Source: an uncultured virus (IMG/VR IMGVR_UViG_3300027884_000001)
Lineage: Duplodnaviria > Heunggongvirae > Uroviricota > Caudoviricetes
DNA length: 64,000 nucleotides
Strand: one strand, 5' to 3'
IMG/VR virus record: IMGVR_UViG_3300027884_000001
Part shown: positions 2,994-29,735 of the stretch, piece by piece
How positions within the stretch are numbered: the first letter of the stretch is position 1
Layout: each line of letters starts with the position of its first letter
Notes under the pieces: generated by a model
Databases searched by the model: none
What the model was told of the DNA's origin: nothing
Seen by the model: only the letters and a program-made list of their open reading frames with translations
Translations under genes and position numbers: made by a program

Positions 2994-4697
2994 ATGGCTG
3001 CCGCATTCGGTCTGCGCAGGTACGACGTCGGTCTCGGCGACGCCAGCATCGGCTACGACTGGGGCGTTGCTCGAGGCCGCGCCGCGGGCGTCAAGACGAC
3101 ACACGACGCGTACCCTGCAGGTGCGCCAGGAATCCGCCGGTCGCTCGAGGAGATGGCGCGTCTGATGCGGGAGGCGCGTCTGGATCCGGCCGTCAATGGC
3201 TACGCGGCGGACGTGCTCAAGGCTGCAGGGATCGACGGGCGCAACCGAGCCAAGTGGACCGCGTTCCAGGTCGCTCAGACGCTGCTCGACAACGTGCGCT
3301 CGGTGGTCATCTACAGCCCGGACGCGGCCGGCGCCGAGGTCATCACGAGCCCCGCGGGCCAGCTCTGTCTGCGACCGGGTCTCTGCATCCGCAAGGAAGA
3401 CTGCGACGGACTGAGCACCCTGCTCGGCGCGCTTCTGATGTGCGTCGGCTTCCGCGTGTGGATCGTCAAGCAGTCCTGGGGTCCCACGCAGCAGGAGCAC
3501 GTTCTCATCGCCGTCGAGGACGAGTCGGGCAAGAAGCTCAAGTGCGATCCGTCGCACGCGACGATGCCTGTGGGTAAGGGCGTGCCGGCGCAGTCCGAGA
3601 TCTTCGTCGATCCGCTCGACACGGTCGGCTCCATCGGCGTGTCCGGAGCCGAGATCGTGACGTTCGGGGCGCTGCCTGGTAGCGTGAGCGACATGCAGGG
3701 CCTCGGTAAGGGTGGCGGTGGTGGCGGCGGCCACGGGGGCGGCGGCGGGGGCTGGCACGGTGGTGGCGGTGGCGGCTGGCATGGCGGTGGGGGTGGTGGC
3801 GGGGGATGGCACGGGGGCCACGGCGGGGGTCCTGGCGTACGCACGTTCCACGGCGGTCAATGGTGGCTGTGGAACGATGGCGCCTGGATCGTAGACGTCG
3901 GTGGATGCACGTCCTGCCAGCAGTGGGGAAACCCCATCGCGCCCTCGAGCGCTCTCTTGGCGGACGCGCAGGCGCATCTGGCTGCCAGCGGTGGTTCGCC
4001 GATCAGCAACTGCTGGACCGATGGTGCGACGTACCTCTACACGAGCGAGAACAGCAACGTCGTCGTGCGGCGATGCGTCTCGACGCGCGCCCCGGGCGTG
4101 AGCGGTCTGGCGCGGCGAGGACAGATCAACGATCAGTTGGCGCCCGCGGGCGTCGGTGCGCTTGTGACGAGCGCTCAGATCCAGGTGGACATCCAGAACA
4201 CGTCGACGTTGATGGACGCGACAAACGTGGGCGTGCAGGCGTGCGCGGGTCTGGCGCAGTCGGACGTGCAGACGTGGGCGGGCATCTACGCGGCGTGGCA
4301 GCTGTGGCTCTCGGGCCTCAACGAGTGCGTCGCAGACTCGGTGCCGAGCATCCACACGGCCTGCGTGAACCCGCCGTACAGCTACACGCTGTCGGAGGAG
4401 TGGGCAGCGGCCGACGCGGGCCTGACGGGCTACCAAGCGACAGCAAGAACGTGGCAGGCCAAGATCAAGATGGCGTGCCCGAGCTATCAACCCACACCTC
4501 CGTTGCCGTCACCGATCGCTCCGCCTGCGCCAACAACCCCGACGTCGTGGGTCGACGACGCGAAAACAGTGGCTGGTCTCGTTGGAGGCACGGTCGGAGT
4601 GCTCGTGGTCGGCTACGGCGTCTACCGGGTCATCCAGTTCGCTGGCGACAAGGCCAATGCACGCGCGTCAGCAGCCAAGACGGTGAAGGCGGCGTGA
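2994..4697 (+). CDS. transglutaminase-like Cys protease domain protein with Gly/His-rich linker and C-terminal TM anchor
   Basis: EDCDGLSTLLGALL...EHVLIAV...KCDPS gives a Cys-His-Asp triad with transglutaminase-like spacing; C-terminal hydrophobic helix. Confidence 0.75.
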   Translation: MAAAFGLRRYDVGLGDASIGYDWGVARGRAAGVKTTHDAYPAGAPGIRRSLEEMARLMREARLDPAVNGYAADVLKAAGIDGRNRAKWTAFQVAQTLLDNVRSVVIYSPDAAGAEVITSPAGQLCLRPGLCIRKEDCDGLSTLLGALLMCVGFRVWIVKQSWGPTQQEHVLIAVEDESGKKLKCDPSHATMPVGKGVPAQSEIFVDPLDTVGSIGVSGAEIVTFGALPGSVSDMQGLGKGGGGGGGHGGGGGGWHGGGGGGWHGGGGGGGGWHGGHGGGPGVRTFHGGQWWLWNDGAWIVDVGGCTSCQQWGNPIAPSSALLADAQAHLAASGGSPISNCWTDGATYLYTSENSNVVVRRCVSTRAPGVSGLARRGQINDQLAPAGVGALVTSAQIQVDIQNTSTLMDATNVGVQACAGLAQSDVQTWAGIYAAWQLWLSGLNECVADSVPSIHTACVNPPYSYTLSEEWAAADAGLTGYQATARTWQAKIKMACPSYQPTPPLPSPIAPPAPTTPTSWVDDAKTVAGLVGGTVGVLVVGYGVYRVIQFAGDKANARASAAKTVKAA

Positions 4698-5221
4698 TGA
4701 GTCGCGCCCGCACACTCGGAGCCGCCGCGGACGACGTGTTCGCGCAGGCGCGCGTGGACTTGTCGAGCACTGTCGGCGCGCAGATCGTCGCTGGCGATAC
4801 GGCGCTCAACGCCGGACAGTACTCTTCGGCCGTCACGGCCTACCAGCAAGCGGGCCAGGTGGGCGCTACGGTCGTCGGACCGGAGATCGATGGCGTCGGT
4901 TACTCCAACGCCACGCAGGGCTACACGCAGCAGGCCTGGCAGCTCAATACGTCGCTCGCTGCGATTCCGGCGGCCAGCGCCACGCAGGCCAACGCGATCA
5001 CTGCGCAGGCTCTCGCGTACAAGATGCAGCAGCTGTACTTGAGCGGGATCGATGCTGGAGACCGAGCCGCGAATCCGCCGTCGAGCGCCTGGCCGGTCCT
5101 GATCACGCTGGCTGGGATCGGTGTCGCTGGCGGCGTCATCCTCGGCTTCATGGATCTGCATCACAAGAGGACGACGATGCGTGCATCGCGCGCGCCGACG
5201 CGTCGCTACTCGACCAGGTGA
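4697..5221 (+). CDS. C-terminally anchored membrane protein, paralog of a domain in 12765 ORF
   Basis: ATG overlaps upstream TGA; shares YTQQAW motif; TM helix plus basic tail. Confidence 0.7.
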   Translation: MSRARTLGAAADDVFAQARVDLSSTVGAQIVAGDTALNAGQYSSAVTAYQQAGQVGATVVGPEIDGVGYSNATQGYTQQAWQLNTSLAAIPAASATQANAITAQALAYKMQQLYLSGIDAGDRAANPPSSAWPVLITLAGIGVAGGVILGFMDLHHKRTTMRASRAPTRRYSTR

Positions 5222-5225
5222 CGAC

Positions 5226-5714
5226 GTGCTCGCAGCGTTCGGCGACGACGTAGGCTTCACGCTCGTAAGCGGCAAGCGCCGACGTGTGGATGCGCCACGA
5301 ACGGCGCTCATGTTCTTCGACGACGACGGCAAGTCGTGGCCGAGCTGCAGTCTTCTCATTGCACGCCTCCAGATGCGCGGTACGCGCCCAGCGACCGACG
5401 ATGAGATGAAAGGTTTGCCTGGGCAGTGGCTCGGCAAAAACTACGAAGGCGCGCGCAGTACGGTTGATCTTCCGCCGAAGTTGCTGAGCGACTGGACGCT
5501 CGTCGGATCGCTCGCGCGCATCTGGTACTTCAGGATCGGCGACTACGCTCCAGGCTTCTTCAAGCACGCATTCAACAAGCCGACAGGTCTACGCAGGCTC
5601 GTGTTCCTCGTGAAGGGCAAGCGCGAAGTCTTGCTGTACCAGAGGCGCTCAATGTTCCGCGTGGAGCTTGGAAAAGGCTGCACGATCACGCGTTCTGGGC
5701 TCGAAGTGCCGTGA
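5226..5714 (+). CDS. hypothetical protein
   Basis: In-frame GTG after AGGTGA; start uncertain. Confidence 0.55.
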   Translation: MLAAFGDDVGFTLVSGKRRRVDAPRTALMFFDDDGKSWPSCSLLIARLQMRGTRPATDDEMKGLPGQWLGKNYEGARSTVDLPPKLLSDWTLVGSLARIWYFRIGDYAPGFFKHAFNKPTGLRRLVFLVKGKREVLLYQRRSMFRVELGKGCTITRSGLEVP

Positions 5715-5746
5715 ATCCAGTCGTTCCGGCGATCGTCTAACGGGAC

Positions 5747-6418
5747 ATGAAGTGGGGACGCGTCGGTAGGCGGCCGAAGGATCTTCCGCTCGAAGAGCTT
5801 GCGAAATTGTACGAAGGCGGATGCAGCAAAGAAGAACTGGCCCTGCGCTACCGCACGAGTGCCGCTACCGTCGGCAACTACTTGCGCAAAGCGTGGAAGC
5901 TGTTCCCGCCGAGCGAATGGGGGCACATGGGTCAAGACTGGAGACCAGTCGTTGGTTACGAGCGCCTGTACGAAGTCTCCGAGTACGGTCTCGTCAGGTC
6001 TCTTGGACGCATTCGCTTCGTGCGTCGCTACGGCATGACCCGAAAGTACATGATCGTTCCGCTAACGCGCGACGGCGTCGCGACATCGATCTCGGTTCAC
6101 AAGATCGTGGCGGAAGCATTTCTGGGTCCGCGTCCGCTCGGTCACGAGATCAACCACAAGGACGGGAACACGTGCAACAACCACTGGAAGAACCTGGCGT
6201 ACGTGTCGCCAGAGGACAACATGGCGCATGCAACGTCGATGGGACTGATTCTGCGTGGTGAGAATCATCCACACGCGAGATTGAGGGAGATCGACGTCTG
6301 GGCGATGCGTACGCTCCGCGCGTGCGGATGGTCGCACGCAAAGATCTCCAAGGAATTCGGGATCGCAGAGAACTACGCGATGCAGATTACGTCGCGCAAA
6401 GCGTGGGCACACGTGTAG
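5747..6418 (+). CDS. NUMOD4/HNH homing endonuclease
   Basis: WRPVVGYERLYEVSEYGLVRS (NUMOD4) and VHKIVAEAFLG...INHKDGNTCNNHWKNL (HNH). Confidence 0.9.
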   Translation: MKWGRVGRRPKDLPLEELAKLYEGGCSKEELALRYRTSAATVGNYLRKAWKLFPPSEWGHMGQDWRPVVGYERLYEVSEYGLVRSLGRIRFVRRYGMTRKYMIVPLTRDGVATSISVHKIVAEAFLGPRPLGHEINHKDGNTCNNHWKNLAYVSPEDNMAHATSMGLILRGENHPHARLREIDVWAMRTLRACGWSHAKISKEFGIAENYAMQITSRKAWAHV

Positions 6419-6459
6419 AGCACTTGTGCAAGCTGGCTCATTGAGCGACACTGCTTCCG

Positions 6460-8316
6460 ATGGGCGTCAGCTACTTGGACATCTTGGCGAAGAACCGCGA
6501 CGACGCTCCTGAGCACGCCGCGACGCCCGTTTTGCACCACGGAAAACGCCGAAAAACAGCCAAGAAGAGGCGTTCAGCGAGCCGGCTGGCAAAATCGACC
6601 ACGAAACGCTTGACGAACCGCAAGCGCAAGCGTGAGAATGCACATCAGCGCAACGTTTCGGAACGAGGTGGATCACAAGGCAGAGCGACTCGACGGACGC
6701 GCACAAGGCGCGCACTCGGAACCGCAAAGCAAGGGATCCACAAGATGGCGACCAAGGCTCGTAGGAAGGCAGCACGGAAGGCAGCGCGTCGTTCACACGC
6801 GGCCAAGGAGACCACGCGTCGTCGCAAGCGCCGCAGCAGCGCAGCTGCCGAAGCGCCCAAGCGTCGCCGCCGCAGCTCCCGTCGTCGCGCGGCAGCAGCC
6901 GAGCCCAAGCGCCGCAAGCGCCGCAGCTCCAAGCGCCGTCGCCACAAGGTGAAGGCGCACTCGGTGCGTCGTCATCGGGTCCGCTCGCACATGAGCAACG
7001 AGACGCCGAAGAAGCGCCGTCGCTCGCGCAAGCGCCGCAGCAGCGGTCGTCGCCGCCTGTCGATGAAGAAGAGCGCGGTCGCCGCGCGTCGTCGTCGCCG
7101 GAGCCACGCCGCAGCAGCGGAGTCGCCCAAGAAGCGCCGTCGCAGCAGCCGCAAGCGCCGCAGTTCGGGTCGTCGTCACCGCGTGCGCGGGCACACGGTC
7201 CGTCGTCGTGGCCGCACGCACCGCGTGCGTGCTCATCTCAGCCGCGAGACACCGCGCAAGCGCCGCCGCAGCCGCCGTCGCAGCCGTAGGGCGATGACGC
7301 ATCACCGCTCGCACCGGCGCTACAGCCGCCGTCGCAGCGGAGCGATGGAGAACCCGCTGAGCGGCATGGAGATCGCGGTCGGCGCCGTCACCGGTGTCGT
7401 CGGCTTCATCTCCGCCGACGCTCTCGACCGCGTCCTGGCCACGCACGCTCTCGGAGCGAGCGCGTCCGGCGCGACCGGGTCGGATGGCAAGCCGCTCTAC
7501 GGCGACACCCCGACGACCACGGGCGCCTACGCGGGTCTGTACAACGCCACCGCCGTCCTCGCCCCCATGAACGGGTGGCGCTGGCTGGCGGGCGCAGGGA
7601 TCACCATCACGCCGTTCGTCATCGCTGCCTTCATCAAGAGCCCCGTGGGCCGCAGCTCGCTGCAGTTCTTCGGGTTCGGCGCTGGCGTTCGGATCCTCGG
7701 CAAGGCCGTCACCGACCTCATGGCCAAGTTCTTCGGTCGCACCAGCTGGGGCGCCCGGATGTACGACGGCGAGGCGCGCGCGGCTGCGCTCAAGAACGGC
7801 GGCGACACGTCGCTCTACCCGACGTCGGGTCTCGGCTCTTTGCCGACCGGCGTGGGAAGCGCGTGCAACTGCGCCAACTGCACCACCGGCGTCGGCTCCT
7901 GCTGCCGCTTGACGGGCAGCCAGGCGCTCCCTCCGCCCGCGGGCGTTCCGCAGGCGTCGGGTCAGCCGACCAACACCGTGACACCGACGCCGATGCCGGC
8001 TCTGCCGATGCCGTCGCCGATGCCCGTCATCCCGCCCGCGTCCTCGACGCCCGCGCCGATGCCGGTCCCCGTCACGGCACCGCCGGTGTTCACGATGCCG
8101 CCGGGTGGAATGCGGCCGCCGCTGTCCTACAGCCCGCAGCCGGCACCGCGCCAGCCCATCCAGGGCCGGTTCCAGAGTCCGCCCGTCTTCGCGCCGCCTC
8201 CGGGCAGCGTGCTTGCGGCCGGAACGCAGGGTCTGCCCGAGGGCGTGGGCGCACCGAACGGGGCTCGCAAGAGCGCGTACCACTGGGGGAGCGATTCGGA
8301 CAAGGCGGCCGAGTAA
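6460..8316 (+). CDS. Arg/Ser-rich protamine-like protein with TM segments and Pro-rich tail (putative DNA-condensing core protein)
   Basis: About 200 aa R/K/S/H-rich repeats, then hydrophobic segments, CNCANC..CC and Pro-rich tail; alternative start ATG 6745. Confidence 0.7.
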   Translation: MGVSYLDILAKNRDDAPEHAATPVLHHGKRRKTAKKRRSASRLAKSTTKRLTNRKRKRENAHQRNVSERGGSQGRATRRTRTRRALGTAKQGIHKMATKARRKAARKAARRSHAAKETTRRRKRRSSAAAEAPKRRRRSSRRRAAAAEPKRRKRRSSKRRRHKVKAHSVRRHRVRSHMSNETPKKRRRSRKRRSSGRRRLSMKKSAVAARRRRRSHAAAAESPKKRRRSSRKRRSSGRRHRVRGHTVRRRGRTHRVRAHLSRETPRKRRRSRRRSRRAMTHHRSHRRYSRRRSGAMENPLSGMEIAVGAVTGVVGFISADALDRVLATHALGASASGATGSDGKPLYGDTPTTTGAYAGLYNATAVLAPMNGWRWLAGAGITITPFVIAAFIKSPVGRSSLQFFGFGAGVRILGKAVTDLMAKFFGRTSWGARMYDGEARAAALKNGGDTSLYPTSGLGSLPTGVGSACNCANCTTGVGSCCRLTGSQALPPPAGVPQASGQPTNTVTPTPMPALPMPSPMPVIPPASSTPAPMPVPVTAPPVFTMPPGGMRPPLSYSPQPAPRQPIQGRFQSPPVFAPPPGSVLAAGTQGLPEGVGAPNGARKSAYHWGSDSDKAAE

Positions 8317-8483
8317 GGTCGTCGACGGAAGTGACGGGCACTGGGGCCCGCCCGCAAGGGCCCCATCGTTGTCAGCGCAACGAGTCGAGTAGGTAAGCAA
8401 CACCAGAGGATCGCGGTCTCAGTCGGCAACCCCCGTCGCAAGGGCCCTTAGGGCGTGCGCGGTCACCGAAAGAGAACACGACC

Positions 8484-9854
8484 ATGGCTACGAAGCAGAA
8501 CAAGTACAGGCTGATCGATCGGCCCACGCCGTCGCCGATGCGCACCATCGGTCTTGGCATGGCGCCCAACCACAGCAAGATCGCAGCGGGTCTCGCCGCC
8601 GGCACCCCGGGTGCAGGCATCGGCGCCCTCATTGACTGGGTCAAGGACTCGGTCAACTGCCCGATCTTCAACATGCCGACCATCGAGCAGGTTCGGTGGG
8701 GCATGGACGGCGCGCAGAGCGACGCGTCCGTGAAGAAGAACTTCGGCGCGGAGATCGACCTCTTCGGATCCGGCAAGGACCCGCAGGGCATCGACTACGT
8801 CGAGACGACGATGGCCCTCGCAGGCGAGACGCAGACGTACATGCTCGCGTGCGCCATCTTCTTCCACGTCGAGCCCGAGCCCCTGTGCTTCACGGCGTTC
8901 GGCAACAGCTGGCAGCCCCTGGGCGGCCCGACGACGGTGCAGGCGGCGGGCAACGTGCCCATCTCGCCCGACGTCTTCACGTTCAACGACTTCACCAACG
9001 GCGCGCTGGGCTCGGGCACCGCGACGGGGACCTTCTTCGGTCCCGCGGTGATGGAGCACGGCTGGTGGGCGAACTACGCCGCCTGGCACATGGTGCGCGG
9101 CTACAACATGCGCTGGAAGATCGGCCAGCACACCAACATCCTCGACGAGGTTCTCCGGCACACGGCGTACATGCCGACCAACGCGCAGGAGGGCTCGGCC
9201 TCCAACAGCGAGGTCGACATCGTCCAGTTCGTCAACCGGATGAACAACTACTACGTCGGCAAGGGCTCGACGCAGCAGTTCCTCAAGGTCAACCGCATCC
9301 GCATCGGATCGGTCCTCGGAACCGCAGGCACCAACCTCGGCATCTTCCGTCCGTCCAACGACGACATCCTCGTCGGTGCGACATACGGCGGCATGGACCT
9401 GCGGTCGCTCCTCAAAGGCAACAGCGAGTTCCGCAAGCTGACGCTGCCGTACGTGATCAAGCCGGGCGTCCCCATCGGTCTCGTCGCGCAGGCCAACGAC
9501 ACCGACCAGATCGACACGATGCAGGCGTACCTGTCGCTCACGCAGATCGGCAACCAGTACGGCGGCGGCGTCTTCCCGCCCGTCGTCACCGACACCCCCG
9601 CGGCGACCACGCCCTGGGACGGCACCAACGCGACGCCGGTGGGTCTCGAGCGCACGCTCGACGGCTTCAACGTCGCGCAGCAGGTCGGAACGGGTCGGTC
9701 GGTCTACAAGAGCGGCACGCTCAAGATCAGCCAGGGCATCAAGGGCTTCGAGGTGTCCGAGGATTGGTACACGATCCTCCAGAACAACCCGGATCTCAAG
9801 GAGCTGGTCATGGGCGAGTGCTCGATCCGCTTCGCCCAGCAGGGCGCGGGCTGA
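8484..9854 (+). CDS. putative major capsid protein (single jelly-roll-like, large)
   Basis: Strong C/G-ending codon bias, no TM helix; motifs ETTMALAGETQTYMLACAIFFHV, FRKLTLPYVIKPGVPIGL and KISQGIKGF recall vertical SJR capsid strands; ORF certain, fold inferred. Confidence 0.55.
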   Translation: MATKQNKYRLIDRPTPSPMRTIGLGMAPNHSKIAAGLAAGTPGAGIGALIDWVKDSVNCPIFNMPTIEQVRWGMDGAQSDASVKKNFGAEIDLFGSGKDPQGIDYVETTMALAGETQTYMLACAIFFHVEPEPLCFTAFGNSWQPLGGPTTVQAAGNVPISPDVFTFNDFTNGALGSGTATGTFFGPAVMEHGWWANYAAWHMVRGYNMRWKIGQHTNILDEVLRHTAYMPTNAQEGSASNSEVDIVQFVNRMNNYYVGKGSTQQFLKVNRIRIGSVLGTAGTNLGIFRPSNDDILVGATYGGMDLRSLLKGNSEFRKLTLPYVIKPGVPIGLVAQANDTDQIDTMQAYLSLTQIGNQYGGGVFPPVVTDTPAATTPWDGTNATPVGLERTLDGFNVAQQVGTGRSVYKSGTLKISQGIKGFEVSEDWYTILQNNPDLKELVMGECSIRFAQQGAG

Positions 9855-9891
9855 TCGGGGGCTGGAAGGGAAACGAGCCGAGGGCTAGCCC

Positions 9892-10671
9892 ATGAGCGAC
9901 AACGTCGTCAGCTTCAGCACCGAGCAGTTCGATCAGCTACTCGGTGTCTTGCAGCAGCGCGGTGGGGCGGCGCCGGGACCTGCGGGTCTCGGGGCCGACC
10001 CGTCCGCGGGTCTTGCAGGCGCTCCGCGCGTGCTGGGCCTGGGCTGCGGCGACGGAGGCATGGGCTCGCTCGCGGCCAGCGTCTACACGATGCTGGCCAT
10101 GGGCAGCCCGCGTCTTGCTCTGGCCAAGGCCAAGGGCATCCCGCTGGCGCCGTACATGATCAACGTGCGGGCCACGTTCCCAGACACGTCGACGTCGATC
10201 GTGCCGGACGTCGGCAGCGACGTGAAGATCACGCAGGACACGTTCATCGACTCGATGATCGTGCGCACGGAGAACCAGTCGGTCACGGCCAACCAGAACC
10301 AGTTCCAGGCCCAGAGCGACTTCTACTACGGCATCCAGAGCGGCATCGAAGTCACTCTCGACGTCCAGGGCGCGCCCCGCTACGCGGTGGCCCCCAAGTT
10401 CATGCCTGTGAGTAACCTCATGGACGCCATCAACGGCGGCGCGCATCGGGGCATGGGCTGGATCCTGACCTACCAGCAGCAGCTCTTCATGAGCTTCCAG
10501 GCCAAGGTCACGATTCCGACCGCTCCCATCGAGGTCATCTGCACGTTCAGCGGATGGGTCCCGGTGTGGGACGAGCTGGTCGCGATGACCAACCGCGAAG
10601 CCATCAAGCAGCTGCGTGAGGACTGCGGGTTCCAGATCGACGATTCGTACGCCAAGCGCTGCTGCCGGTGA
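9892..10671 (+). CDS. putative second capsid protein (single jelly-roll-like, small)
   Basis: Alternating beta strands: YMINVRATF, KITQDTFIDSM, IEVTLDV..RY, FMPVSNL, IEVICTFSGW; directly follows 8484 ORF. Confidence 0.55.
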   Translation: MSDNVVSFSTEQFDQLLGVLQQRGGAAPGPAGLGADPSAGLAGAPRVLGLGCGDGGMGSLAASVYTMLAMGSPRLALAKAKGIPLAPYMINVRATFPDTSTSIVPDVGSDVKITQDTFIDSMIVRTENQSVTANQNQFQAQSDFYYGIQSGIEVTLDVQGAPRYAVAPKFMPVSNLMDAINGGAHRGMGWILTYQQQLFMSFQAKVTIPTAPIEVICTFSGWVPVWDELVAMTNREAIKQLREDCGFQIDDSYAKRCCR

Positions 10672-10706
10672 GGGCTCGCGCGCGCGGCGCGTAAGGGCAA
10701 GGACCG

Positions 10707-11552
10707 ATGAGCGCGCGCAACAGACGCTGGGAGATCGCGACAACCGGATTCGACGAGTACCTGCAGCTACTCGGCGGCGATCCGTACAGCGCCAACGGCG
10801 CCTCGACCTCGGTCGGGCTGCGTGTGCCGACGCTGGCGACGCCCACGGTGGCCCTCGGCGGTCTCACGAGCCGCTACCTCTTCCTGCTGGCGAGCTTCTC
10901 GGTGCCCGAGGGCGGCCGGGTGCGTATTCGCGGCTACCGGCAGATGGTCACGATCGGCTACAAGCAGGTCGAGGGCGAGGGCGGGTCGGCAACCACGTAC
11001 ATCGTCGAGCAGCTCGTCACGAGCCCATTCTGGCGGTTCAACGACGGCAACATCAGCTGGCACATCCACCGCATCGGTTCGCCGAACGCGCAAGGCGTCC
11101 CGCAGGTACCTGGCAACGGACCGGCGGACATGTCGAGCTTCAAGCAGTACTGGGCGGACGGTCCAGCACTGCTTTACGGTCCGCCTGCTCCCGCTCGCCC
11201 CGCGGGCGACATCTACACGAACCTCGGGAGCTACGCGCCGCCAAATGCAGGCAAGCCGTACGGCCAGCCTGTCGCGAGCAAGCAAGGCACCTTCTACGAT
11301 CTCCGGTCGCCGTGGGAGACCGACCGCGCTTGGGACGCGCTCGACATTCCGATCGACGGTCCGGAGACCATCGGGTTTTTCGCGAGCGTGCGACAGACCA
11401 ACCCGTCGACGCGCGTCGCGCTCACGCCACCGAGCCCCACGTTCTACTCGGGCGGCCTGTCGGCCGAGGAGCAGTTCCTGCTCAACTTCCCTGGCGCGAT
11501 CTACTGGCGCGTCGCGGGCTCGCTCATCGTAGAAGAAGGCGAGACGCCGTAA
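10707..11552 (+). CDS. putative virion structural protein
   Basis: AAGGA RBS; beta-rich soluble protein in the structural operon. Confidence 0.6.
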   Translation: MSARNRRWEIATTGFDEYLQLLGGDPYSANGASTSVGLRVPTLATPTVALGGLTSRYLFLLASFSVPEGGRVRIRGYRQMVTIGYKQVEGEGGSATTYIVEQLVTSPFWRFNDGNISWHIHRIGSPNAQGVPQVPGNGPADMSSFKQYWADGPALLYGPPAPARPAGDIYTNLGSYAPPNAGKPYGQPVASKQGTFYDLRSPWETDRAWDALDIPIDGPETIGFFASVRQTNPSTRVALTPPSPTFYSGGLSAEEQFLLNFPGAIYWRVAGSLIVEEGETP

Positions 11553-17101: not shown

Positions 17102-17460
17102 GTCGTCACCTCTGCCCGCTCGTCGGCATCGAATTTGGCGAGCGCGGCGATCTGATCGCTCAGCACCACGGCCCACGCGCCTGCGCCCTGCCAGTCGCCA
17201 CCGATTCCGAGCAGGTTACCGTCCGCGTCTACCAGGACGTCGATCTCCTCGCTACTGCGGCGAGCATGTACGACGGTCCACCCGTCCGCCCTTGCGGCCT
17301 CGACCGCCGCGTCAATCGTGTCCTGGCCAGGGACGTCGGTGTACGGGGCGTAGCCGCATCCGCGATCGTTGCCGTACTTGTAGAGTCTCACCGCGTCGCG
17401 CATCGTGATCGTCGTCTTGTGCTGGGTCGGAGCGAAGTGAGCTGAGCGGGCCATGGTCAT
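17098..17460 (-). CDS. hypothetical protein
   Basis: GGAGG RBS; first gene after TTGACA promoter. Confidence 0.6.
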   Translation of the reverse strand: MTMARSAHFAPTQHKTTITMRDAVRLYKYGNDRGCGYAPYTDVPGQDTIDAAVEAARADGWTVVHARRSSEEIDVLVDADGNLLGIGGDWQGAGAWAVVLSDQIAALAKFDADERAEVTT

Positions 17461-17471
17461 CACCTCCACAA

Positions 17472-17503
17472 GTCACTGTAGTGACGTTTGCGTCACCTGT
17501 CAA
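17472..17503 (-). promoter_or_regulatory. sigma70 promoter with palindromic operator
   Basis: TTGACA-17 nt-TACAGT; GTCACTGTAGTGAC overlaps the -10. Confidence 0.75.
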
Positions 17504-17546
17504 CACGACCTGGCAACCCTGCAAAACACGCTGTTTTCGCCATGTC

Positions 17547-17581
17547 TTGCGCCGGGCCAACCTCGGCGCTACGTCACGCCC
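17547..17581 (+). promoter_or_regulatory. leaderless promoter of groES operon
   Basis: TTGCGC-17 nt-TACGTC-6 nt-ATG; same hexamers and spacing at 22640-22674. Confidence 0.55.
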
Positions 17582-17959
17582 ATGACCACGTCCAGCGCCA
17601 CTGTACCGTCCACCCTGCCTTTGCCGCCGTTCACGCTCCTGGCTGACCGCGTCTTGATCCTGCCAGACAAGGAGCCGGAGATGAGCCGTGGCGGGATCAT
17701 CATCCCCGAGACAGCCAACCGTCACGGCGACCGCGAGCTACTCACGGGCCGCGTCGTCAAGGTCGGTCCTGGAATGCTCATGGCCAACGGCGATCGGTTT
17801 CCGATGGCGGACTGCAAGATCGGTGACCGCGTCGCCTACTACAAGCACGGCACGGTCGTGGTGAAGATCGAAGAGGTGAAGTACCTGTCGATGCGCGACG
17901 ACAACGTGCACGCGGTGCTGGAGCCCGAGCCTGGCGACGAAGGGTATGTGGCGCCGTGA
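17582..17959 (+). CDS. groES: co-chaperonin GroES (Cpn10) family protein
   Basis: LADRVLI..E..SRGGIIIPETA...GRVVKVGPG...KIGDRV...YLSMRDDNVHAVLE. Confidence 0.9.
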   Translation: MTTSSATVPSTLPLPPFTLLADRVLILPDKEPEMSRGGIIIPETANRHGDRELLTGRVVKVGPGMLMANGDRFPMADCKIGDRVAYYKHGTVVVKIEEVKYLSMRDDNVHAVLEPEPGDEGYVAP

Positions 17960-19162: not shown

Positions 19163-19167
19163 TTGTC

Positions 19168-22632: not shown

Positions 22633-22674
22633 TCGCCCCTTGCGCACCGCCGCAGCGGTCGCTACGTCGTAGAT

Positions 22675-23091: not shown

Positions 23092-23288
23092 TGGCTTCAC
23101 GAAGGATCGAATTGCCGCCCGCGTTGACCAACGTCCTCATCGGCCTTGGTAACTTCGCCGGTCGTCACGTGGCCGAAGGTGTCAAGCGCACGCGGTCGAG
23201 CGCCCTCAAGGAAGTGCGCGACATGCTCAAGCGCGCCAGCGAGATCGCCGACGCGGCAGCGAAGGAAGATGACGAGCGCGACGAGTAA
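23091..23288 (+). CDS. hypothetical protein
   Basis: GGAGG RBS, stop/start overlap. Confidence 0.6.
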   Translation: MASRRIELPPALTNVLIGLGNFAGRHVAEGVKRTRSSALKEVRDMLKRASEIADAAAKEDDERDE

Positions 23289-23303
23289 GGAAGGAAGACG
23301 GTC

Positions 23304-23714: not shown

Positions 23715-23726
23715 GAGGCGCGTTCC

Positions 23727-23999
23727 ATGAGCAAAGCGTTCGATCACGCTCAGCACGTCGCCTCGAACATCGTCAAGAAGTACGGCATGCCTGACTGGTT
23801 TCTCGGCACCGGCGTCGACGCGGATGGTCGCGCCATCACGATTCGTGTCGCGCACGGCTTCAGGGACCGCATCGACGAGCCGAAGACAATCGACGGTGTC
23901 CGCATCCGCGTCATCGAGCGCGAGATGGCCAGGCCTCGATCACTCACTCCGGTCGTTCATCAGTACGATGGCCGCAAGCTGCCGAAGATGCTCGGATGA
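23727..23999 (+). CDS. hypothetical protein
   Basis: GAGG RBS. Confidence 0.55.
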   Translation: MSKAFDHAQHVASNIVKKYGMPDWFLGTGVDADGRAITIRVAHGFRDRIDEPKTIDGVRIRVIEREMARPRSLTPVVHQYDGRKLPKMLG

Positions 24000-24463
24000 C
24001 GCCGTTCCGCGCTCACCCGACGATCCGGTGCAAGACCCACGGCGACTTGCGGTGGGGAGGCCACATCGTCTGCACGACGATTCTCGAGGACGGACGTCTC
24101 TGCGGCGCGGCGTACACGACCCGGGATGAGTCGCTGTCGACGCACGCGCCCCCGCGGTGCCGCAGCTGCGGCGAGCGCCTGCTGCCGGTGCCAGGTTCGG
24201 CGGTCAAGGAGCGCAGCACGTACACGGCTCGGGCGTATTGTCCGCTGTGCTTCACCAACACGCCGCGAGCCAAACGTGGGGCGCACGACATGGGCGATCC
24301 CAAGTGCGAAGGCGAAACGTGTCCGTTCCATGGACCGCAGATCAAGAAGCTCCAGCGTCGCGTTCAGCGAGCTGGCTCACATAGCAAGTCTCCAGAGGAG
24401 TCGAAGAGCGTCGAGATCCAGGTGCCCGGTGTGCTCGGCACGTTCGAGGTGTCACGTGGCTGA
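23996..24463 (+). CDS. Cys-rich zinc-binding protein
   Basis: Multiple CxxC/CxxH; ATGA overlap. Confidence 0.6.
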   Translation: MTPFRAHPTIRCKTHGDLRWGGHIVCTTILEDGRLCGAAYTTRDESLSTHAPPRCRSCGERLLPVPGSAVKERSTYTARAYCPLCFTNTPRAKRGAHDMGDPKCEGETCPFHGPQIKKLQRRVQRAGSHSKSPEESKSVEIQVPGVLGTFEVSRG

Positions 24464-24962
24464 CGTACAGATCTGGAGCCGTCCGTCCGGCCTCATCATC
24501 CGTCGCGTGAGCGGATGCGTCTTTCGATCGGCGCAGCCGAAGGATCTGGCCGACTGGGAGTTCATGCGCGACTCGCTCGGCATCGACACGGTCGTCAAGC
24601 TCAACACCGAGAGCGAGGGCAGCGACAAGGGTGGCCGGGCGCTCGGGTTCGCCGTGCACGACTACGCCATCCCGCCCATCGGCGACGGTCCGATCCTCCA
24701 AGAGATCGCGGGCATCTTCGAGCGCCCGAACATGGGCAAGATCGAGGAAGCGATGGAGATCGCCGCCGCTGGCAACTGCCTGGTCCACTGCACGCACGGG
24801 GAAGACCGAACGGGTCTGGTATGCGGCATCTACCGGGTGCGCTACGATGGCTGGAGCACCAAAGAGGCCTGGGACGAGATGATTGCGCTCGGCTACCATC
24901 CGGAGTTCATCGGTCTGGACCGTGCGTGGTTCATGGAGTGCAGCGCAGGGAGAGGGGTATGA
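24456..24962 (+). CDS. protein-tyrosine/dual-specificity phosphatase family protein
   Basis: VFRSAQP...GIDTVVKL...LVHCTHGEDRTG (HCx5R). Confidence 0.85.
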   Translation: MADVQIWSRPSGLIIRRVSGCVFRSAQPKDLADWEFMRDSLGIDTVVKLNTESEGSDKGGRALGFAVHDYAIPPIGDGPILQEIAGIFERPNMGKIEEAMEIAAAGNCLVHCTHGEDRTGLVCGIYRVRYDGWSTKEAWDEMIALGYHPEFIGLDRAWFMECSAGRGV

Positions 24963-25444
24963 CCAAGATCGCAGATGCCACGTGTCCGAGCTGTCACGCG
25001 TCGCTCGAGGTCAACGAGACGATCCATCCCGAGCCGCACGAACTGTCGCGCATCCGGCGCGTCCTGCGACGGGTGGGTCGGTTTCTGATCGCGGTATCGC
25101 AGATCGGTCAGTACGTCCCCGAAGCCACCGAGACACGTCGCGTCGACGAGCCTGTTGTCGATCGTGTTCCACGATGCGGCGTCGTCATCACCAGGGGTCC
25201 AGTCTCTCCGTGGGGCAGCCTGCGCAGATCCGACCGTCGTGTCTGCGACCAGCCAGCGCCGAACTTCCGACGCGCGACCGATCCGAGGCGCTTCGGTCCT
25301 TATACGGACGACGTGAGCCTGGCCGTCTGCGATGAGTGTGCCGCGCGCTGGGTGGCTGGGCTTCCGCGCTGGCGAGACGAGTCCGAGATCCTCGTCGACA
25401 TGCGCGAGAAGAACGGCGCCAGCGACGTTGCAGCCAAGACCTGA
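24959..25444 (+). CDS. hypothetical protein (CxxC)
   Basis: ATGA overlap, GAGGGG RBS. Confidence 0.55.
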   Translation: MTKIADATCPSCHASLEVNETIHPEPHELSRIRRVLRRVGRFLIAVSQIGQYVPEATETRRVDEPVVDRVPRCGVVITRGPVSPWGSLRRSDRRVCDQPAPNFRRATDPRRFGPYTDDVSLAVCDECAARWVAGLPRWRDESEILVDMREKNGASDVAAKT

Positions 25445-25449
25445 TCTCG

Positions 25450-25713
25450 ATGGCCGACGCAGAGATCATCCGGCTCGACATCGTCCGCGCGCAGCGGGCC
25501 CTCGAGAAGTTTCGCGGGCGCCACGATCGCACGGCGGTCGACACGCTCTACGGGCCGGCGAAGCTAGGACTGAGCGAGGCGGAGATCCAGGCGCTGCGTA
25601 CCACGGAGCTGGCAGAAGTGCGTCGGCAGCGGGGCTCGGCGCACTGGAAGGTGACGCTCACGGCGATGGGCCGCAGGGAGCGGGACAAGAAGCAGTCGCG
25701 CCGCGCGGAGTGA
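25450..25713 (+). CDS. hypothetical, possibly winged-helix protein
   Basis: Ends KVTLTAMGR. Confidence 0.45.
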   Translation: MADAEIIRLDIVRAQRALEKFRGRHDRTAVDTLYGPAKLGLSEAEIQALRTTELAEVRRQRGSAHWKVTLTAMGRRERDKKQSRRAE

Positions 25714-25717
25714 CCGG

Positions 25718-25951
25718 CTACGGCTGCACCACCTTCGCCATGGTGGCCGACGAACTTCGCGACAGCTGCATGATGCGCTCGCGTGCGCCATTGGTCGTAG
25801 CGTCGAAAACGAAGACAGAGATTCCGTCGACGAACATCGAGACGTCCCTCGGGAATTCGAGAAGGACGCTCTCCACGAAGTCGCGCGCCCGCGCCTCGCT
25901 CTCGAAGACGACGAGGTATGTGGGGACCTTGTAGCCGTCTCTGTCGTCCAC
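25718..25951 (-). CDS. hypothetical protein
   Basis: 77 aa ORF filling a gap. Confidence 0.5.
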   Translation of the reverse strand: MDDRDGYKVPTYLVVFESEARARDFVESVLLEFPRDVSMFVDGISVFVFDATTNGARERIMQLSRSSSATMAKVVQP

Positions 25952-26021
25952 GCGGCACAGGGTAGCCCGGAAGGGTACGAGCTAGCCTCCAGGCTGGCTG
26001 TTGGGTAGGCTTGGTCCGGAC

Positions 26022-26642
26022 GTGAACTTCGAGGTCCTGCACCGCGACCCGCTCATCCTGTTCGTGCCCGAGTTCGTCTCGGCAGAGGAAGCGGCGTACC
26101 TGATCGCGGCCGGCGACCGCTTCATGGAGCGATCGAAGGTCGTCTGCAACGATCCGGACGGCTGCATCGACGCGCGGCGCACCAGCGAGAGCGCGCACCT
26201 TGGGCTCGACCCGAACGCGGAATCGATCCGGCAGCGCGCGCGCGATTTCTCGAGACTGGCGACCTGCGAGACCCTGCAGGTCGTGCGCTACGACGTCGGG
26301 CAGGAGTTCAAGCCGCACCTGGACCAGTTCGACACGTCGACCGATGTCGGCCGGCGCGAGGTTCGGACCGGCGGACAACGCGGTGCGACATTCCTGGTGT
26401 ACCTCAACGAGCCGGCCGCTGGGGGCGCGACCGTGTTTCCGGAGGTCGGGTTGTCGGTGCTGCCGAAAGCGCGTGCAGCGGTCTTCTGGCGGCACCAGCT
26501 CCCCAACGGCAGGACCGACCCCCGGACGCTCCACGGGGGCGCCCCGGTTACAGCCGGAGTGAAATACGTAATGAACTGCTGGCTGAGGCTTCCGCGCGAT
26601 CCTCAACTAAATCCGCAGCTGTCTCCGTCTAACGTAAGGTGA
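26022..26642 (+). CDS. prolyl 4-hydroxylase-like 2OG-Fe(II) oxygenase
   Basis: RTSE..., ETLQVVRY..GQEFKPHLD, TFLVYLN...GGATVF, LHGGAPV..GVKY..NCW; start uncertain. Confidence 0.9.
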   Translation: MNFEVLHRDPLILFVPEFVSAEEAAYLIAAGDRFMERSKVVCNDPDGCIDARRTSESAHLGLDPNAESIRQRARDFSRLATCETLQVVRYDVGQEFKPHLDQFDTSTDVGRREVRTGGQRGATFLVYLNEPAAGGATVFPEVGLSVLPKARAAVFWRHQLPNGRTDPRTLHGGAPVTAGVKYVMNCWLRLPRDPQLNPQLSPSNVR

Positions 26643-27394
26643 GAGATCCCAACGTGAGGTGTCCGAAGCATCCGGGCAGGCCTGCGAAAACGCGTGGTCT
26701 GTGCGGCTCGTGTTACGAGCGATGGCTTGAGGCGAGAGATCCGGCATACCTGGAACGTCGTCGCGCGAGAAGTAGTGCGCGAGCAAAAATTGAACGGATC
26801 AAGGGTGCGGCTAAGGTGCGCCACACAAAGTGGAGGCATGCACAGTCAGAGACGAAGCGAAGGGCTCGGTGGCTGTGGGCAACGTATCGACTGACCAGCG
26901 GGCAGTACGAGGAACTTCGGGAGGCGCAAGGAGATGCCTGCAAGCTGTGCCGCAAGTCGTTCTCGACGCCGAAGACGATCCATGTCGACCACAAGCACGG
27001 CACGACCATCGTGCGTGGGTTGCTGTGTCACAAGTGCAACCTCGGCCTCGGACATTTTGAGGACAACGCCGATGTTCTGCGTCGTGCCGCCGAATACGTG
27101 GACACGGTCGCCATCGACAACTCGCCGAACAGGAACGCGGTGCCGCGTCACCTGCGCGTTCAGCAGGAACGTTTGCACGCGCGCAAGTACACGTTCTTGG
27201 CAGCCGTTCGCAAGATGTCTGACGACCATGTGAAGGCGCAGACGATTGGACGCGTTCGGGATCTGGTCCGCAGCGGCATGAACATTCGGCAGGCTGGCGA
27301 AGTCGTTGGATCTGATCATGCGTACGGGACACTGTGTCGTTGGATGCGGGAACCGACACCGATCCACGTTGAGGACATCGGCTACGGTTGCTGA
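26639..27394 (+). CDS. endonuclease VII-family homing endonuclease
   Basis: YRLT..QY...Q...CKLC...HVDHKH...VRGLLCHKCNLGLG. Confidence 0.9.
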   Translation: MRDPNVRCPKHPGRPAKTRGLCGSCYERWLEARDPAYLERRRARSSARAKIERIKGAAKVRHTKWRHAQSETKRRARWLWATYRLTSGQYEELREAQGDACKLCRKSFSTPKTIHVDHKHGTTIVRGLLCHKCNLGLGHFEDNADVLRRAAEYVDTVAIDNSPNRNAVPRHLRVQQERLHARKYTFLAAVRKMSDDHVKAQTIGRVRDLVRSGMNIRQAGEVVGSDHAYGTLCRWMREPTPIHVEDIGYGC

Positions 27395-27517
27395 AAACGG
27401 CTCCCACAACAGCCAGCTGGCACGCAGATCAACCCCCAGTTGCAGCCCAGGGGTGTCTAGGGGTACGCTCTGACGCATGAGCCCGAAGGTTACAGGCGCC
27501 CTCAGTGGCGGACTGGC

Positions 27518-27994
27518 GTGCCAGGTTACGTCGACATGTCAGAGAGTACGCGTCGCAAGATAAGCGAATCGCGCACGCCAGAAGAGTGGCGTGAACACTC
27601 GTTGCGAACTGCAGCCGCGCTTACACCAGAACAACGGCGAGAGAAGTCGCTGCGTGGAGCGGCATCTCAGACGGCGGAGCAGCGTCGCGAAAAAGCGCTG
27701 AAAGGTGCGGCAGCGCAAACGCCAGCGCAGCGCAGCGCCAAGGCGACCAAACGCTGGATCGGCGCGACGCTCGAGGAGCGCGAAAAGGCCGCGGAGCGGG
27801 CACGAAACATTCACCCGGATGTTCGACTTGCGATGGCGCACAAGCAGTGGCGCACGAAGTACGCGACGATGTTGCCAGAACAGCAGCAAGCGTTCGACGC
27901 TCCGAAAAGACGTCTCATGCGCTTCAAGCGTGCGGTCACGAAGCTGGCGGCCAAGCCGGTCGCACCGGTAGAAGATCTGGGCTACGGGTGCTGA
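27518..27994 (+). CDS. basic repeat protein (NUMOD3-like DNA-binding repeats)
   Basis: MSESTRRKISES and 15-aa TPEQRREKxLxGAA repeats. Confidence 0.55.
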   Translation: MPGYVDMSESTRRKISESRTPEEWREHSLRTAAALTPEQRREKSLRGAASQTAEQRREKALKGAAAQTPAQRSAKATKRWIGATLEEREKAAERARNIHPDVRLAMAHKQWRTKYATMLPEQQQAFDAPKRRLMRFKRAVTKLAAKPVAPVEDLGYGC

Positions 27995-27996
27995 CG

Positions 27997-29460
27997 ATGA
28001 CCGAGCCGCTCATCGCCTGCACGACGCCAACGCTCAACCGGCCCGAGACGCACGAGTCGCTCTATCAGACGTTCGTCAACCAGGATTGGCCGAACAAAAT
28101 ACTTCTGGTTCTTGACGAGAGCGCCACGCCGTCACCGTTCTTTTCGAGGTGCATGGATGCGCGCGTGCAGTACGTGCACGCGCCGAGTTCTCGCGGGGAC
28201 GTGACACGTATCGGCTCTGCAAGGAATCGACTGTGTCAGATGGCGAGAAAAGTCGGCGCGTCGTTCGTGGCGCATATGGACGACGATGACACGTACGCGA
28301 GAGGCTATTTGACTCGCATGCGAGAGCGACTCGGCAGCGCCAGCCTCGTCAAACTCGCCATCTTCCGACTTCTTGTCGACGGCGGCGAGTCTTCTGGAAC
28401 GCTGTGGCAGTGGGACGTGCGGTCGATGGGCGGCACGCACTACGCGCTGCAGGGAAGTAGGACGCCGGAAAGTGTCGACGTACCTGCGGACGACGATCCT
28501 GTGTACGCCGAAGCGATGAGGTTCGGCTACGGTTTCTCCTATTTTTTCCGTCTGGACGTCGCCCTGCGCTTCCCGTTTCCCGCCGAGGGCACCGAGGACT
28601 ACCCGTGGGTGCGAACGCTGCGTGAGAACGGTCATCGCGTCGTAGAGGTCGACGACTTCGCCGACGGATGCCTGCATGTGGTGCACGACGGCTCGAATTC
28701 GATGCTTTGGCCCCAGTTCTACCTGGGAAAGCACGCTCCGGGGGTAGGGTCCGAGCCTGTGTCGCTGCGTTCTTTCGCCCGCTGGCGTATGCTTGGGGCC
28801 GTGAGCCAGATGTACGAACTGCCGCAGGGCAAGGACATCCAGGTCGAGCCCGGGGTGACCTACCAGATCGTCGCCAAGATCAAGAACAACCACACGCTCA
28901 AGAGCGTCACGGTGCGCGCCGAGTCGTGGGGGCTGGTCGTGTCTGGCGCGCAGGACAACGTCAACGCTGCCGACCTCGGCGTGAAGCCAGCGCCCAACGG
29001 GTACCGTCTGGTGCAGGTCATGGGGACGTCGAACAAGTCGATGAAGGTACCCTGGAAGGGAAACAAGCTCGTGTCGCTCCTCGACAAGTCAAGCATGGTG
29101 CGCGCGTGGAGCGACAAGGCTCCCGCGGCAGTCCAGATCAACCCGCAGCTCACGCCCGCGGCCGCTGGTGTCGGCAGCGTCGACTTCAACAGTCCAGCTT
29201 GCTGCAAGAACTTCGCGTGGACGTCGACCATGGGTCCTCGAGTGCGTGGTCATCATCCATCGTGTCCGAAGGTCTACCGTCAGCCGAGCAACTGCTACGG
29301 CGAGATCGGCGGCGACCAGATCAACTGGCAGCTGTCGCCGACGCTTCCGGACGGCGGTGGCGGTGGCGGAGGCGGCGGTGGTGGGCGATCGTCATCACCC
29401 GGTCCGTCGCCGTCGCCTCGCGGTGTGTCGCCCGCTCCTCACGGTCTGTCGCGAGTGTGA
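27997..29460 (+). CDS. GT2-like glycosyltransferase with C-terminal extension
   Basis: TPTLNR...QDWPNK..LVLDE...IGSARN...AHMDDDD...EDY. Confidence 0.8.
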   Translation: MTEPLIACTTPTLNRPETHESLYQTFVNQDWPNKILLVLDESATPSPFFSRCMDARVQYVHAPSSRGDVTRIGSARNRLCQMARKVGASFVAHMDDDDTYARGYLTRMRERLGSASLVKLAIFRLLVDGGESSGTLWQWDVRSMGGTHYALQGSRTPESVDVPADDDPVYAEAMRFGYGFSYFFRLDVALRFPFPAEGTEDYPWVRTLRENGHRVVEVDDFADGCLHVVHDGSNSMLWPQFYLGKHAPGVGSEPVSLRSFARWRMLGAVSQMYELPQGKDIQVEPGVTYQIVAKIKNNHTLKSVTVRAESWGLVVSGAQDNVNAADLGVKPAPNGYRLVQVMGTSNKSMKVPWKGNKLVSLLDKSSMVRAWSDKAPAAVQINPQLTPAAAGVGSVDFNSPACCKNFAWTSTMGPRVRGHHPSCPKVYRQPSNCYGEIGGDQINWQLSPTLPDGGGGGGGGGGGRSSSPGPSPSPRGVSPAPHGLSRV

Positions 29461-29462
29461 GT

Positions 29463-29735
29463 ATGAAACCGATCGGCAAGATGGGGGCGTTCACGCTCGT
29501 GACCGCCACGGGGCTCGGCGGGACGATGGTCGCGGCGGTGCTGCTCAACCTGTTGTCCGGACGTCGCGGAACAGAAGAAGACTTCATCGAGGCGCTCGTC
29601 ATCGGCTTGCCTACAGCCATGGCGGCCGGTGGTGTTGCTGCGGCCATCACGCCGTCGCTCGCTGCAGCGCCAGCGACTGGCACCGGCAGGCTTCCGTCGC
29701 AGATCAACGATCAGCTGTCGCCGCGCAGGGGCTAA
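29463..29735 (+). CDS. small two-TM membrane protein
   Basis: Two hydrophobic helices; ends QINDQLSPRRG. Confidence 0.6.
   Translation: MKPIGKMGAFTLVTATGLGGTMVAAVLLNLLSGRRGTEEDFIEALVIGLPTAMAAGGVAAAITPSLAAAPATGTGRLPSQINDQLSPRRG

Follow-up and report, generated by a model that had tools for sequence, protein, structure and literature searches.

The tag and its carriers

We analysed a 64,000-nucleotide stretch of DNA (the window) from an uncultured virus of the Caudoviricetes (IMG/VR record IMGVR_UViG_3300027884_000001). It has a GC content of 62–68% and long co-directional blocks of open reading frames (ORFs) with coding-type GC content at third codon positions (GC3), and it looks like part of a large uncultivated virus. 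An eight-residue peptide of the consensus form Q-[ILV]-N-x-Q-L-x-P, hereafter the tag, is encoded six times in the window, in or beside the genes for a predicted prolyl 4-hydroxylase, a glycosyltransferase-like protein and two membrane proteins. These copies, and the genes around them, are the following.

2994–4697, + strand: 567-residue membrane protein (transglutaminase-fold N-domain, Gly-rich linker, β domain, tag linker, helical domain, C-terminal membrane helix)
4122–4145, + strand: tag copy 1, QINDQLAP, in the disordered inter-domain linker of the 567-residue protein
4146–4157, + strand: AGVG, a second conserved linker element (glycine–hydrophobic residue–glycine, G-hydrophobic-G)
26022–26642, + strand: predicted collagen-type prolyl 4-hydroxylase (2-oxoglutarate (2OG)-Fe(II) oxygenase, PF13640) with a substitute C-terminal tail
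26585–27396, + strand: inserted cassette of 812 bp, relative to the related locus L009, with the substitute hydroxylase tail and the endonuclease VII gene
26604–26627, + strand: tag copy 2, QLNPQLSP, in the substitute hydroxylase tail, with recoded codons (CAA CTA AAT...)
26639–27394, + strand: endonuclease VII, homing-endonuclease-like (PF02945, E = 3.8e-22; phrog_2914)
27425–27448, + strand: tag copy 3, QINPQLQP, untranslated relic of the original hydroxylase tail
27477–27563, + strand: truncated start of a gene for a small Gly-zipper membrane protein; the L009 orthologue is intact, with 78 residues and the end AINPQLAPR*
27988–29460, + strand: glycosyltransferase-like protein (GT-A/GT2-like domain, β domain, tag, Cys-rich module, tag, low-complexity tail)
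29134–29157, + strand: tag copy 4, QINPQLTP, in the glycosyltransferase-like protein, followed by AAAGVG
29317–29340, + strand: tag copy 5, QINWQLSP, in the same protein, after the Cys-rich module
29463–29735, + strand: 90-residue protein with two predicted membrane helices and the tag at its end
29700–29723, + strand: tag copy 6, QINDQLSP, in the 90-residue protein, three residues before the stop codon

The six copies had been listed in an earlier note on this DNA, and a six-frame translation searched with the pattern Q[IL]N.QL.P returned all of them with the same peptides (4122, 26604, 27425, 29134, 29317 and 29700). All lie on the + strand, with the three window frames represented. Looser patterns gave no extra copies in the window translation: 'IN.QL' occurs only in five of the six tag copies, and the sole near-miss is QINFQ at 41032. 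From the six-frame residue frequencies 0.0006 copies are expected by chance, against the six found, and none of 60 first-order Markov simulations of the window yielded a copy. The DNA core CAGATCAACNNNCAGYTG, with up to two mismatches, matched five times against 0.19 expected, a number reached in none of 100 shuffles. Five of the six copies fall in frame within ORFs with coding-type GC3 (2994–4697, 26022–26642, 27988–29460 with two copies, and 29463–29735), all in the same phase. The earlier note had assigned the peptide to unrelated loci. The carrier proteins are indeed otherwise unrelated, but the copies are not scattered, since five of the six fall within 3.1 kb in one gene cluster. It had also remarked, correctly, that two copies precede AGVG: the sequence continues as APAGVG at 4122 and as TPAAAGVG at 29134.

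Selection acts on the peptide

The tag is real and under purifying selection at the peptide level. In 13 tag DNA instances, taken from the window and three related metagenome loci, leucine is encoded by four codons, proline by two, and asparagine and glutamine by both of theirs, with every non-synonymous position of N, Q, L and P fixed and the two x codons free. Because synonymous sites vary while these four residues stay constant, the tag is selected as a peptide, which bears out both the codon variation and the protein-level selection that had been proposed from the window. In total we collected 57 instances, 52 of them outside the window, with a pattern that required N, Q, L and P, so that the invariance of those residues follows in part from the search itself. 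Of the 57, 48 begin with Q, 40 have I at position 2, and 43 have T, S or A at position 7.

The earlier note had proposed to ask whether the motif is absent from homologous proteins in related viruses; it is present in homologues from four protein families. For the 567-residue protein, 15 of 22 homologues (34–78% identity) hold [QAS][IV]NxQLxP at the same position in a linker whose flanks are unalignable, and the other seven are without it. Ten of 16 aligned homologues of the glycosyltransferase-like protein have the tag directly behind the ...AWSD end of the β domain; six of these ten carry a second copy, in five cases 1–4 residues from the stop codon, and the homologues without a tag are the six most distant ones and P0041. 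Within the viral clade of the hydroxylase (51–90% identity), 19 of 22 proteins are tagged on a C-terminal extension, while the remaining three end at or before the last strand of the domain, two of them being obvious fragments. Cellular-type hydroxylases (at most 42% identity) end with the catalytic domain, and the tag is found in none of the 98 among those listed. The sole close homologue of the 90-residue membrane protein (P0162, 84% identity) retains the tag and ends ...RLPSTPQINDQLSPRRT, and other small Gly-rich membrane proteins end alike, as ...AINPQLAPR* in L009 and ...SVNDQLMPR* in L015. The peptide is kept in homologues across 50–90% protein identity. It is specific to one clade of large uncultivated viruses.

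The hydroxylase lost its tagged tail and regained one

By profile, catalytic residues and fold, the product of 26022–26642 is a collagen-type peptidyl-prolyl 4-hydroxylase, with activity predicted. It matches PF13640 at 53.1 bits (cut-off 27; E = 6.7e-14). Among 49 sequences the iron triad H106, D108 and H178 is invariant, and K188, the basic residue that binds 2OG, is at least 90% conserved. The AlphaFold2 (AF2) model has a mean predicted local distance difference test score (pLDDT) of 91.9, and about 60 in the tagged tail. Foldseek matched it to human C-P4H-II (7zsc, E = 4e-18), to 3gze (template-modelling score (TM-score) 0.80), to 3itq and to 5c5t; algal and Bacillus anthracis prolyl 4-hydroxylases and the chlorovirus enzyme vCPH are among the matches, with PHD2 weaker (about 1e-8).

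The C-terminus of this enzyme has been exchanged. Comparison by blastn with L009, an 84%-identical relative, aligned L009 8167–9308 with window 25442–26584 and L009 9309–9431 with window 27397–27518 (90% identical), so the 812 bp of the cassette sit at a single break, L009 9308/9309. In L009 the intact hydroxylase ends ...RLPQQPAGTQINPQLQPRAP. In the window it ends with a substitute tail, ...PRDPQLNPQLSPSNVR, and the tag copy at 26604 lies inside the insertion. Around the copy at 27425 the frame stays open for 21 codons and offers no start codon; because window 27397–27518 aligns to the intact hydroxylase end in L009, this copy is the displaced tail of the hydroxylase. It had been counted as an orphan, an independent use of the tag, and that interpretation falls: it is an untranslated relic. 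The two copies differ at seven of 24 bases and keep the peptide. That a mobile cassette cut off the tail yet supplies a recoded, tagged one argues that the hydroxylase needs a tag-bearing tail, and the recoded substitute is the strongest single argument for this need.

L009 homology ends at window 27518, the start of an ORF (27518–27994) that cuts off the small membrane-protein gene. This ORF encodes 158 residues with repeated ...EQRREK... helices and replaces the body of the small membrane-protein gene of L009. In L013/L019 the glycosyltransferase gene has a 63%-identical copy immediately upstream, and the ORF is possibly one more mobile gene. The hydroxylase cluster is preceded by a tyrosine/dual-specificity phosphatase-like ORF (24126–24962) that is conserved in L009.

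Architecture of the other carriers

The AF2 model of the 567-residue protein is divided as follows.

Residues 40–210: transglutaminase-fold domain
Residues 214–280: disordered Gly-rich linker
Residues 281–365: β domain
Residues 366–388: tag segment, pLDDT below 50
Residues 393–494: helical bundle
Residues 518–566: C-terminal membrane helix

The N-domain is, as modelled, of the transglutaminase/papain-like fold with a Cys-His-Asp triad, and its activity is predicted. C137, which starts the helix 137–150, H169 and D185 are invariant. VIA-align gave factor XIII (Z 10.0, 150 residues aligned, root-mean-square deviation 3.9), the putative protease 3kd4 (Z 9.7) and TG2 (Z 9.2), with further structural matches to the protease 3isr, LapG and PeiP. 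Eleven of 23 family members match the Pfam family Transglut_core (PF01841; best E = 8.2e-5), the window's own protein giving no match to it at E up to 1, and a search of PDB sequences with the family profile found nothing. The N-domain shares 33% identity with gp34 of Salisaeta icosahedral phage 1 (SSIP-1), which is annotated as 'structural protein'. The gene lies directly upstream of a block (5121–11552) that is syntenic and 33–64% identical in relatives of 76–78 kb, and the conserved gene block from which the protein comes is probably structural. Residues ~233–280 (window 3690–3830) form a long Gly run broken by His and Trp (GGGGGGHGGGGGGWHGGGGGGWHGG...), which is also found in the homologue P0012; the tail of the glycosyltransferase-like protein likewise holds a poly-Gly run.

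The glycosyltransferase-like protein scores just below the cut-offs of PF20691 (26.2 bits, cut-off 27.5) and PF00535 (20.4 bits, cut-off 23.3). Five of its homologues have precomputed PF00535 matches, and its DDDD motif (D98–D101) is nearly invariant. The 90-residue gene that follows lies in a segment (window 29456–34904) that is missing from L009 and also contains the tRNA array and HNH genes.

Across all carriers the tag stands behind a folded module, either in a disordered linker or 1–10 residues from the stop codon. The 24 terminal copies are followed by tails of 1–10 residues (median 3), and 26 of the 29 internal copies by G[VLFMIA][GAS] within 0–10 residues (median 3). In the family alignment of the 567-residue protein (A1), G386 and G388 are at least 90% conserved, members without the tag included. 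Since G-hydrophobic-G is kept even where the tag is lost, AGVG is part of a second conserved element of the linker. Confidence at the tag is low in both AF2 models (pLDDT below 50 for residues 366–388 of the 567-residue protein, about 60 in the hydroxylase tail), which indicates that the tag on its own is a disordered linear motif; low-confidence placement in a linker or tail is typical of short linear motifs. No docking of the tag in cis was seen in these two models, in which the tag segment is of low confidence, and inspection revealed no N-terminal signal peptide on any carrier. By the positive-inside rule, judged by eye, the tags of the membrane proteins would face the side occupied by the soluble enzymes. 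The description of the tag as a mark of 'modifying enzymes' needs widening: enzymes do carry it, but so do small membrane proteins.

Relatives without the tag

More distant relatives in IMG/VR are records of 76–80 kb with direct terminal repeats, and contigs with proteins identical or close to those of the window reach 148,729 bases. The IMG/VR relatives of the 567-residue protein (L005–L008) have neither the tag, in 20-kb loci or in whole records, nor the hydroxylase. Three complete relatives encode the transglutaminase-fold protein without the hydroxylase and contain no tag-like pattern at any position, and loci of glycosyltransferase orthologues at 38–43% identity likewise have neither tag nor hydroxylase.

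The place of the tag is otherwise occupied in some of these relatives. The untagged glycosyltransferases of L011 and L014 end in a membrane helix and a basic tail. That of another clade ends ...HGYAAAIFGRRVR*, and the next gene, which encodes an N-terminally anchored membrane protein, ends ...QGYAAAIGVGR*. The 79.8-kb record (L013 11108–11709, same as L019; record G005) has no GYAAAI(F)G tail beyond these two, and a fused homologue, P0040, carries GYAAAIFG internally. As the relatives have a membrane anchor or another shared tail where the tag would be, a role in localisation is indicated.

At the DNA level, blastn of window 26000–30000 against a phage collection gave no match. An exact scan of IMG/VR for the DNA motif returned three single matches, unrelated by context. 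The same scan of GTDB genomes returned 63 single matches, which we attribute to chance because, one HNH gene aside, they encode no relatives of the window's ORFs.

Other genes of the window

Most ORFs of the window have no Pfam or PHROGs match; those that can be named include several HNH and endonuclease VII genes, a collagen-like 'tail fibre' protein and a GroES-like protein (17453–17959). The collagen-like fibre protein (41835–43580) consists mostly of G-P-T and G-A-T repeats, with proline first after glycine; X-Pro-Gly triplets, the classic collagen hydroxylase site, are rare in it. The tRNA array (30016–34469) holds 29 genes, 25 on the + strand and then four on the − strand, of which Rfam confirms 13. 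Two HNH endonuclease ORFs lie within it (29862–30707 and 33163–33723). The first, as called, overlaps three tRNA genes, and because its PHROG match covers only residues 115–263 the real gene probably starts after 30211. The ORF at 8484–9854 (456 residues) has the highest GC3 of the long ORFs (0.94), is 41–55% identical in four of four IMG/VR relatives and is a candidate for a major virion protein; the Terminase_6N and HK97 Phage_capsid profiles had no match in four relatives (G001, G003, G004 and G005, three of them complete with terminal repeats). Elsewhere in the window, a MoxR-like AAA+ ATPase (phrog_19600, E = 4.5e-76) adjoins a VWA-domain protein on the − strand (59130–61840), and a DnaJ-like ORF occupies 51088–52080.

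What the tag may do

The most economical reading is that the tag is a docking or co-localisation signal read by one shared partner, to which we assign, tentatively, a probability of about 0.4. The tag, appended behind the folded modules of unrelated proteins (the hydroxylase, the glycosyltransferase-like protein, the transglutaminase-fold membrane protein and the small membrane proteins), would be recognised by one and the same partner, and its recognition would dock or co-localise the carriers at a membrane-associated or virion-assembly site; both the role and the site of docking we infer. Fixed tag positions amid hypervariable flanks count for this reading, and so does the substitution of anchors or other tails in relatives. 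The position of the 567-residue gene beside the conserved syntenic block and the match of its N-domain to the SSIP-1 virion protein also speak for it. The capsid candidate at 8484–9854 had no Pfam, PHROGs, PDB or Atlas match. Several observations weigh against docking. All carriers bear the same tag and not complementary pairs, so an extra partner must be postulated. Tag and hydroxylase co-occur at the level of the clade, the three complete untagged relatives being without hydroxylase as well, a pattern that a modification site would explain just as well. Seven of 22 homologues of the 567-residue protein do without the tag, and one of these (P0014) and a tagged hydroxylase (P0055) both come from contigs of 141,694 bases. 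Finally, the presence of two tags in one polypeptide and the conserved G-hydrophobic-G after internal copies hint at processing over simple docking.

The tag could instead be the substrate of an enzyme encoded in the same genome, and two readings of this kind are serious rivals to docking. If it were a modification site, the adjacent hydroxylase would hydroxylate its proline and the neighbouring glycosyltransferase might then glycosylate the hydroxyproline, with the enzymes also carrying the site. Proline is present in 57 of 57 instances (the search pattern required it) and is preceded by T, S or A in 43. [A/S/T]-Pro is the site of plant and algal hydroxylases and LxxLAP, with its L-x-P end, that of HIF, and the tag resembles both. 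By TM-score the hydroxylase model is closest to an algal enzyme solved with a (Ser-Pro)5 peptide (3gze, 0.80), and its catalytic residues are intact. The hydroxylase gene, that of a small tagged protein and the glycosyltransferase gene are neighbours, hydroxylase and tag are both missing from the three complete relatives and from the motif-negative glycosyltransferase loci, and all tag copies lie in accessible disordered segments. However, the collagen-like fibre (41835–43580) is an obvious default substrate, and we know of no collagen-type hydroxylase that requires four fixed residues before the proline. The hydroxylase is itself tagged on its own tail in 19 of 22 cases, AF2 does not put that tail in the active site (pLDDT about 60), a proline-free GYAAAIFG tail stands at the same place in a clade without hydroxylase, and the co-occurrence is based on very few independent lineages; on balance we consider a modification site unlikely. 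We are similarly doubtful of a handle for the transglutaminase-fold domain, in which the tag would be either a glutamine donor cross-linked to a lysine of the virion or a scaffold, or the recognition element of a cysteine protease or transpeptidase that cuts at G-hydrophobic-G and leaves each module with a C-terminal tag. The fold of the N-domain (factor XIII Z 10.0, TG2 Z 9.2; the proteases 3kd4, 3isr, LapG and PeiP) and its invariant Cys, His and Asp speak for such a handle, as does a glutamine fixed in all instances (again required by the pattern). The factor XIII substrate peptides NQEQVSPL and NPEQTPVL (PMC8773154) resemble the tag, a likeness that spans only a few residues. The spacing from internal tags to G-hydrophobic-G (0–10, median 3) equals the length of the terminal tails (1–10, median 3), so that cleavage there would make every copy terminal, and in the linker of the enzyme itself the element keeps at least 90% conservation, family members that lost the tag included. 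Yet the transglutaminase-fold protein is present in relatives whose complete genomes are tag-free, which makes its core function independent of the tag. Moreover, cell-wall hydrolysis at entry is a simpler role for such a domain in a virion, the linker is not docked onto the domain in AF2, and the sister clade's GYAAAIFG tail has no glutamine. A more elaborate version, which we regard as speculative and distinctly improbable, would join the two activities in one virus-encoded route of covalent processing and ligation: the domain would cut the polyprotein-like carriers at G-hydrophobic-G, leaving every module with the tag at its end. With the tag glutamine as acyl donor it would then attach the hydroxylase and the glycosyltransferase, as well as the small membrane proteins and its own protein, to a virion or scaffold lysine. 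Such a covalent handle would be an enzyme-driven counterpart of capsid cross-linking and a natural 'Q-tag'.

Two further explanations deny the peptide a function, and both are close to excluded. It is very hard to see the tag as a functionless hitch-hiker, a tail segment that recombination near mobile endonuclease genes has spread among gene ends and that has still to decay. Insertions and replacements are concentrated in the cluster, and one copy is a dead relic, but the fixed positions are held in four families while the flanking linkers are randomised, 52 instances lie outside the window, and the substitute hydroxylase tail is recoded yet tagged. We give next to no credence to a reading at the DNA level, in which a homing-endonuclease target, a recombination site or a regulatory site merely translates to the peptide. 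In its favour are the enrichment of the DNA core, the single strand shared by all copies, and the position of two copies on either side of the endonuclease VII gene and of one before an HNH gene; however, the five genic copies are read in the same phase, and only synonymous sites and the two free codons vary, unlike the codon-independent DNA conservation expected of a homing target. The 26604 and 27425 copies share the peptide pattern despite their seven differences in 24 bases, the peptide is kept at 50–90% protein identity, and distances to endonuclease genes are inconsistent in a region generally rich in such genes. A β-clamp/PIP-box motif, an amyloid signalling motif, a C-terminal degron, a translational arrest peptide and an Asn autocleavage site were dropped on inspection, as the residue pattern or the carriers did not fit. 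A sortase- or exosortase-type sorting signal was also rejected: terminal copies are followed by only 1–10 residues and no helix.

Comparison with known systems

A literature search for a tag on phage hydroxylases or glycosyltransferases, for SSIP-1 gp34 and for virion transglutaminase-like proteins found no relevant description. Sequence alone revealed the tag, in a virus group whose genes are almost all unannotated, and it extends to 52 independent instances outside the window and to four protein families. The hydroxylase locus amounts to a natural experiment, in which a mobile endonuclease took the tag of the enzyme and the replacement tail gave it back. Identifying the reader of the tag would assign functions to several orphan genes and show how a bacterial virus deploys a prolyl hydroxylase and a glycosyltransferase. 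If the tag is an enzyme substrate, it would provide a new peptide tag for hydroxylation, glycosylation or ligation.

Sortase LPXTG and exosortase PEP-CTERM signals are C-terminal sorting signals cut by transpeptidases, and LapG is a transglutaminase-like protease. Like these systems, the tag marks diverse proteins near the C-terminus with a short conserved motif and a short variable tail, in a genome that encodes a membrane-anchored Cys-His-Asp enzyme. In contrast to them, it is not followed by a hydrophobic helix and basic tail (its tails have 1–10 residues), and the di-alanine site of LapG is not consistently present.

In Skp1, proline hydroxylation is followed by glycosylation. With this protein, the HIF LxxLAP site and the plant and algal [A/S/T]-Pro sites, the tag shares a proline after Leu-x or after T, S or A, a disordered setting, and genes for a prolyl 4-hydroxylase and a glycosyltransferase-like protein beside its carriers. 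It differs in that the viral enzyme is by fold of the collagen type and not the HIF type and carries the site itself, and in that modification is hypothetical here.

The likeness to the glutamine-donor peptides of transglutaminases, such as those of factor XIII (PMC8773154), lies in the series N...Q-hydrophobic-[S/T]-P and in a genome whose transglutaminase-fold protein is itself tagged. The tag departs from those peptides by one residue in spacing, the viral domain could be a protease or hydrolase, and a cross-link is hypothetical here.

Finally, encapsulin cargo-loading peptides, the capsid targeting sequence of phage T4 and the encapsulation peptides of microcompartments are cargo-targeting peptides. 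As in those cases, a peptide of about 8–15 residues is common to unrelated enzymes and stands terminally behind a flexible linker, where one shell or scaffold partner would read it. The sequence of the viral tag is unrelated to theirs, however, its carriers include membrane proteins, some copies lie between modules and are followed by G-hydrophobic-G, and both a shell partner and packaging of the carriers in the virion are hypothetical here. Short shared targeting peptides load enzymes into encapsulins, microcompartments and some phage heads, and they are useful engineering handles. A short tag shared among proteins is thus a device already known; this motif and its carriers are new.

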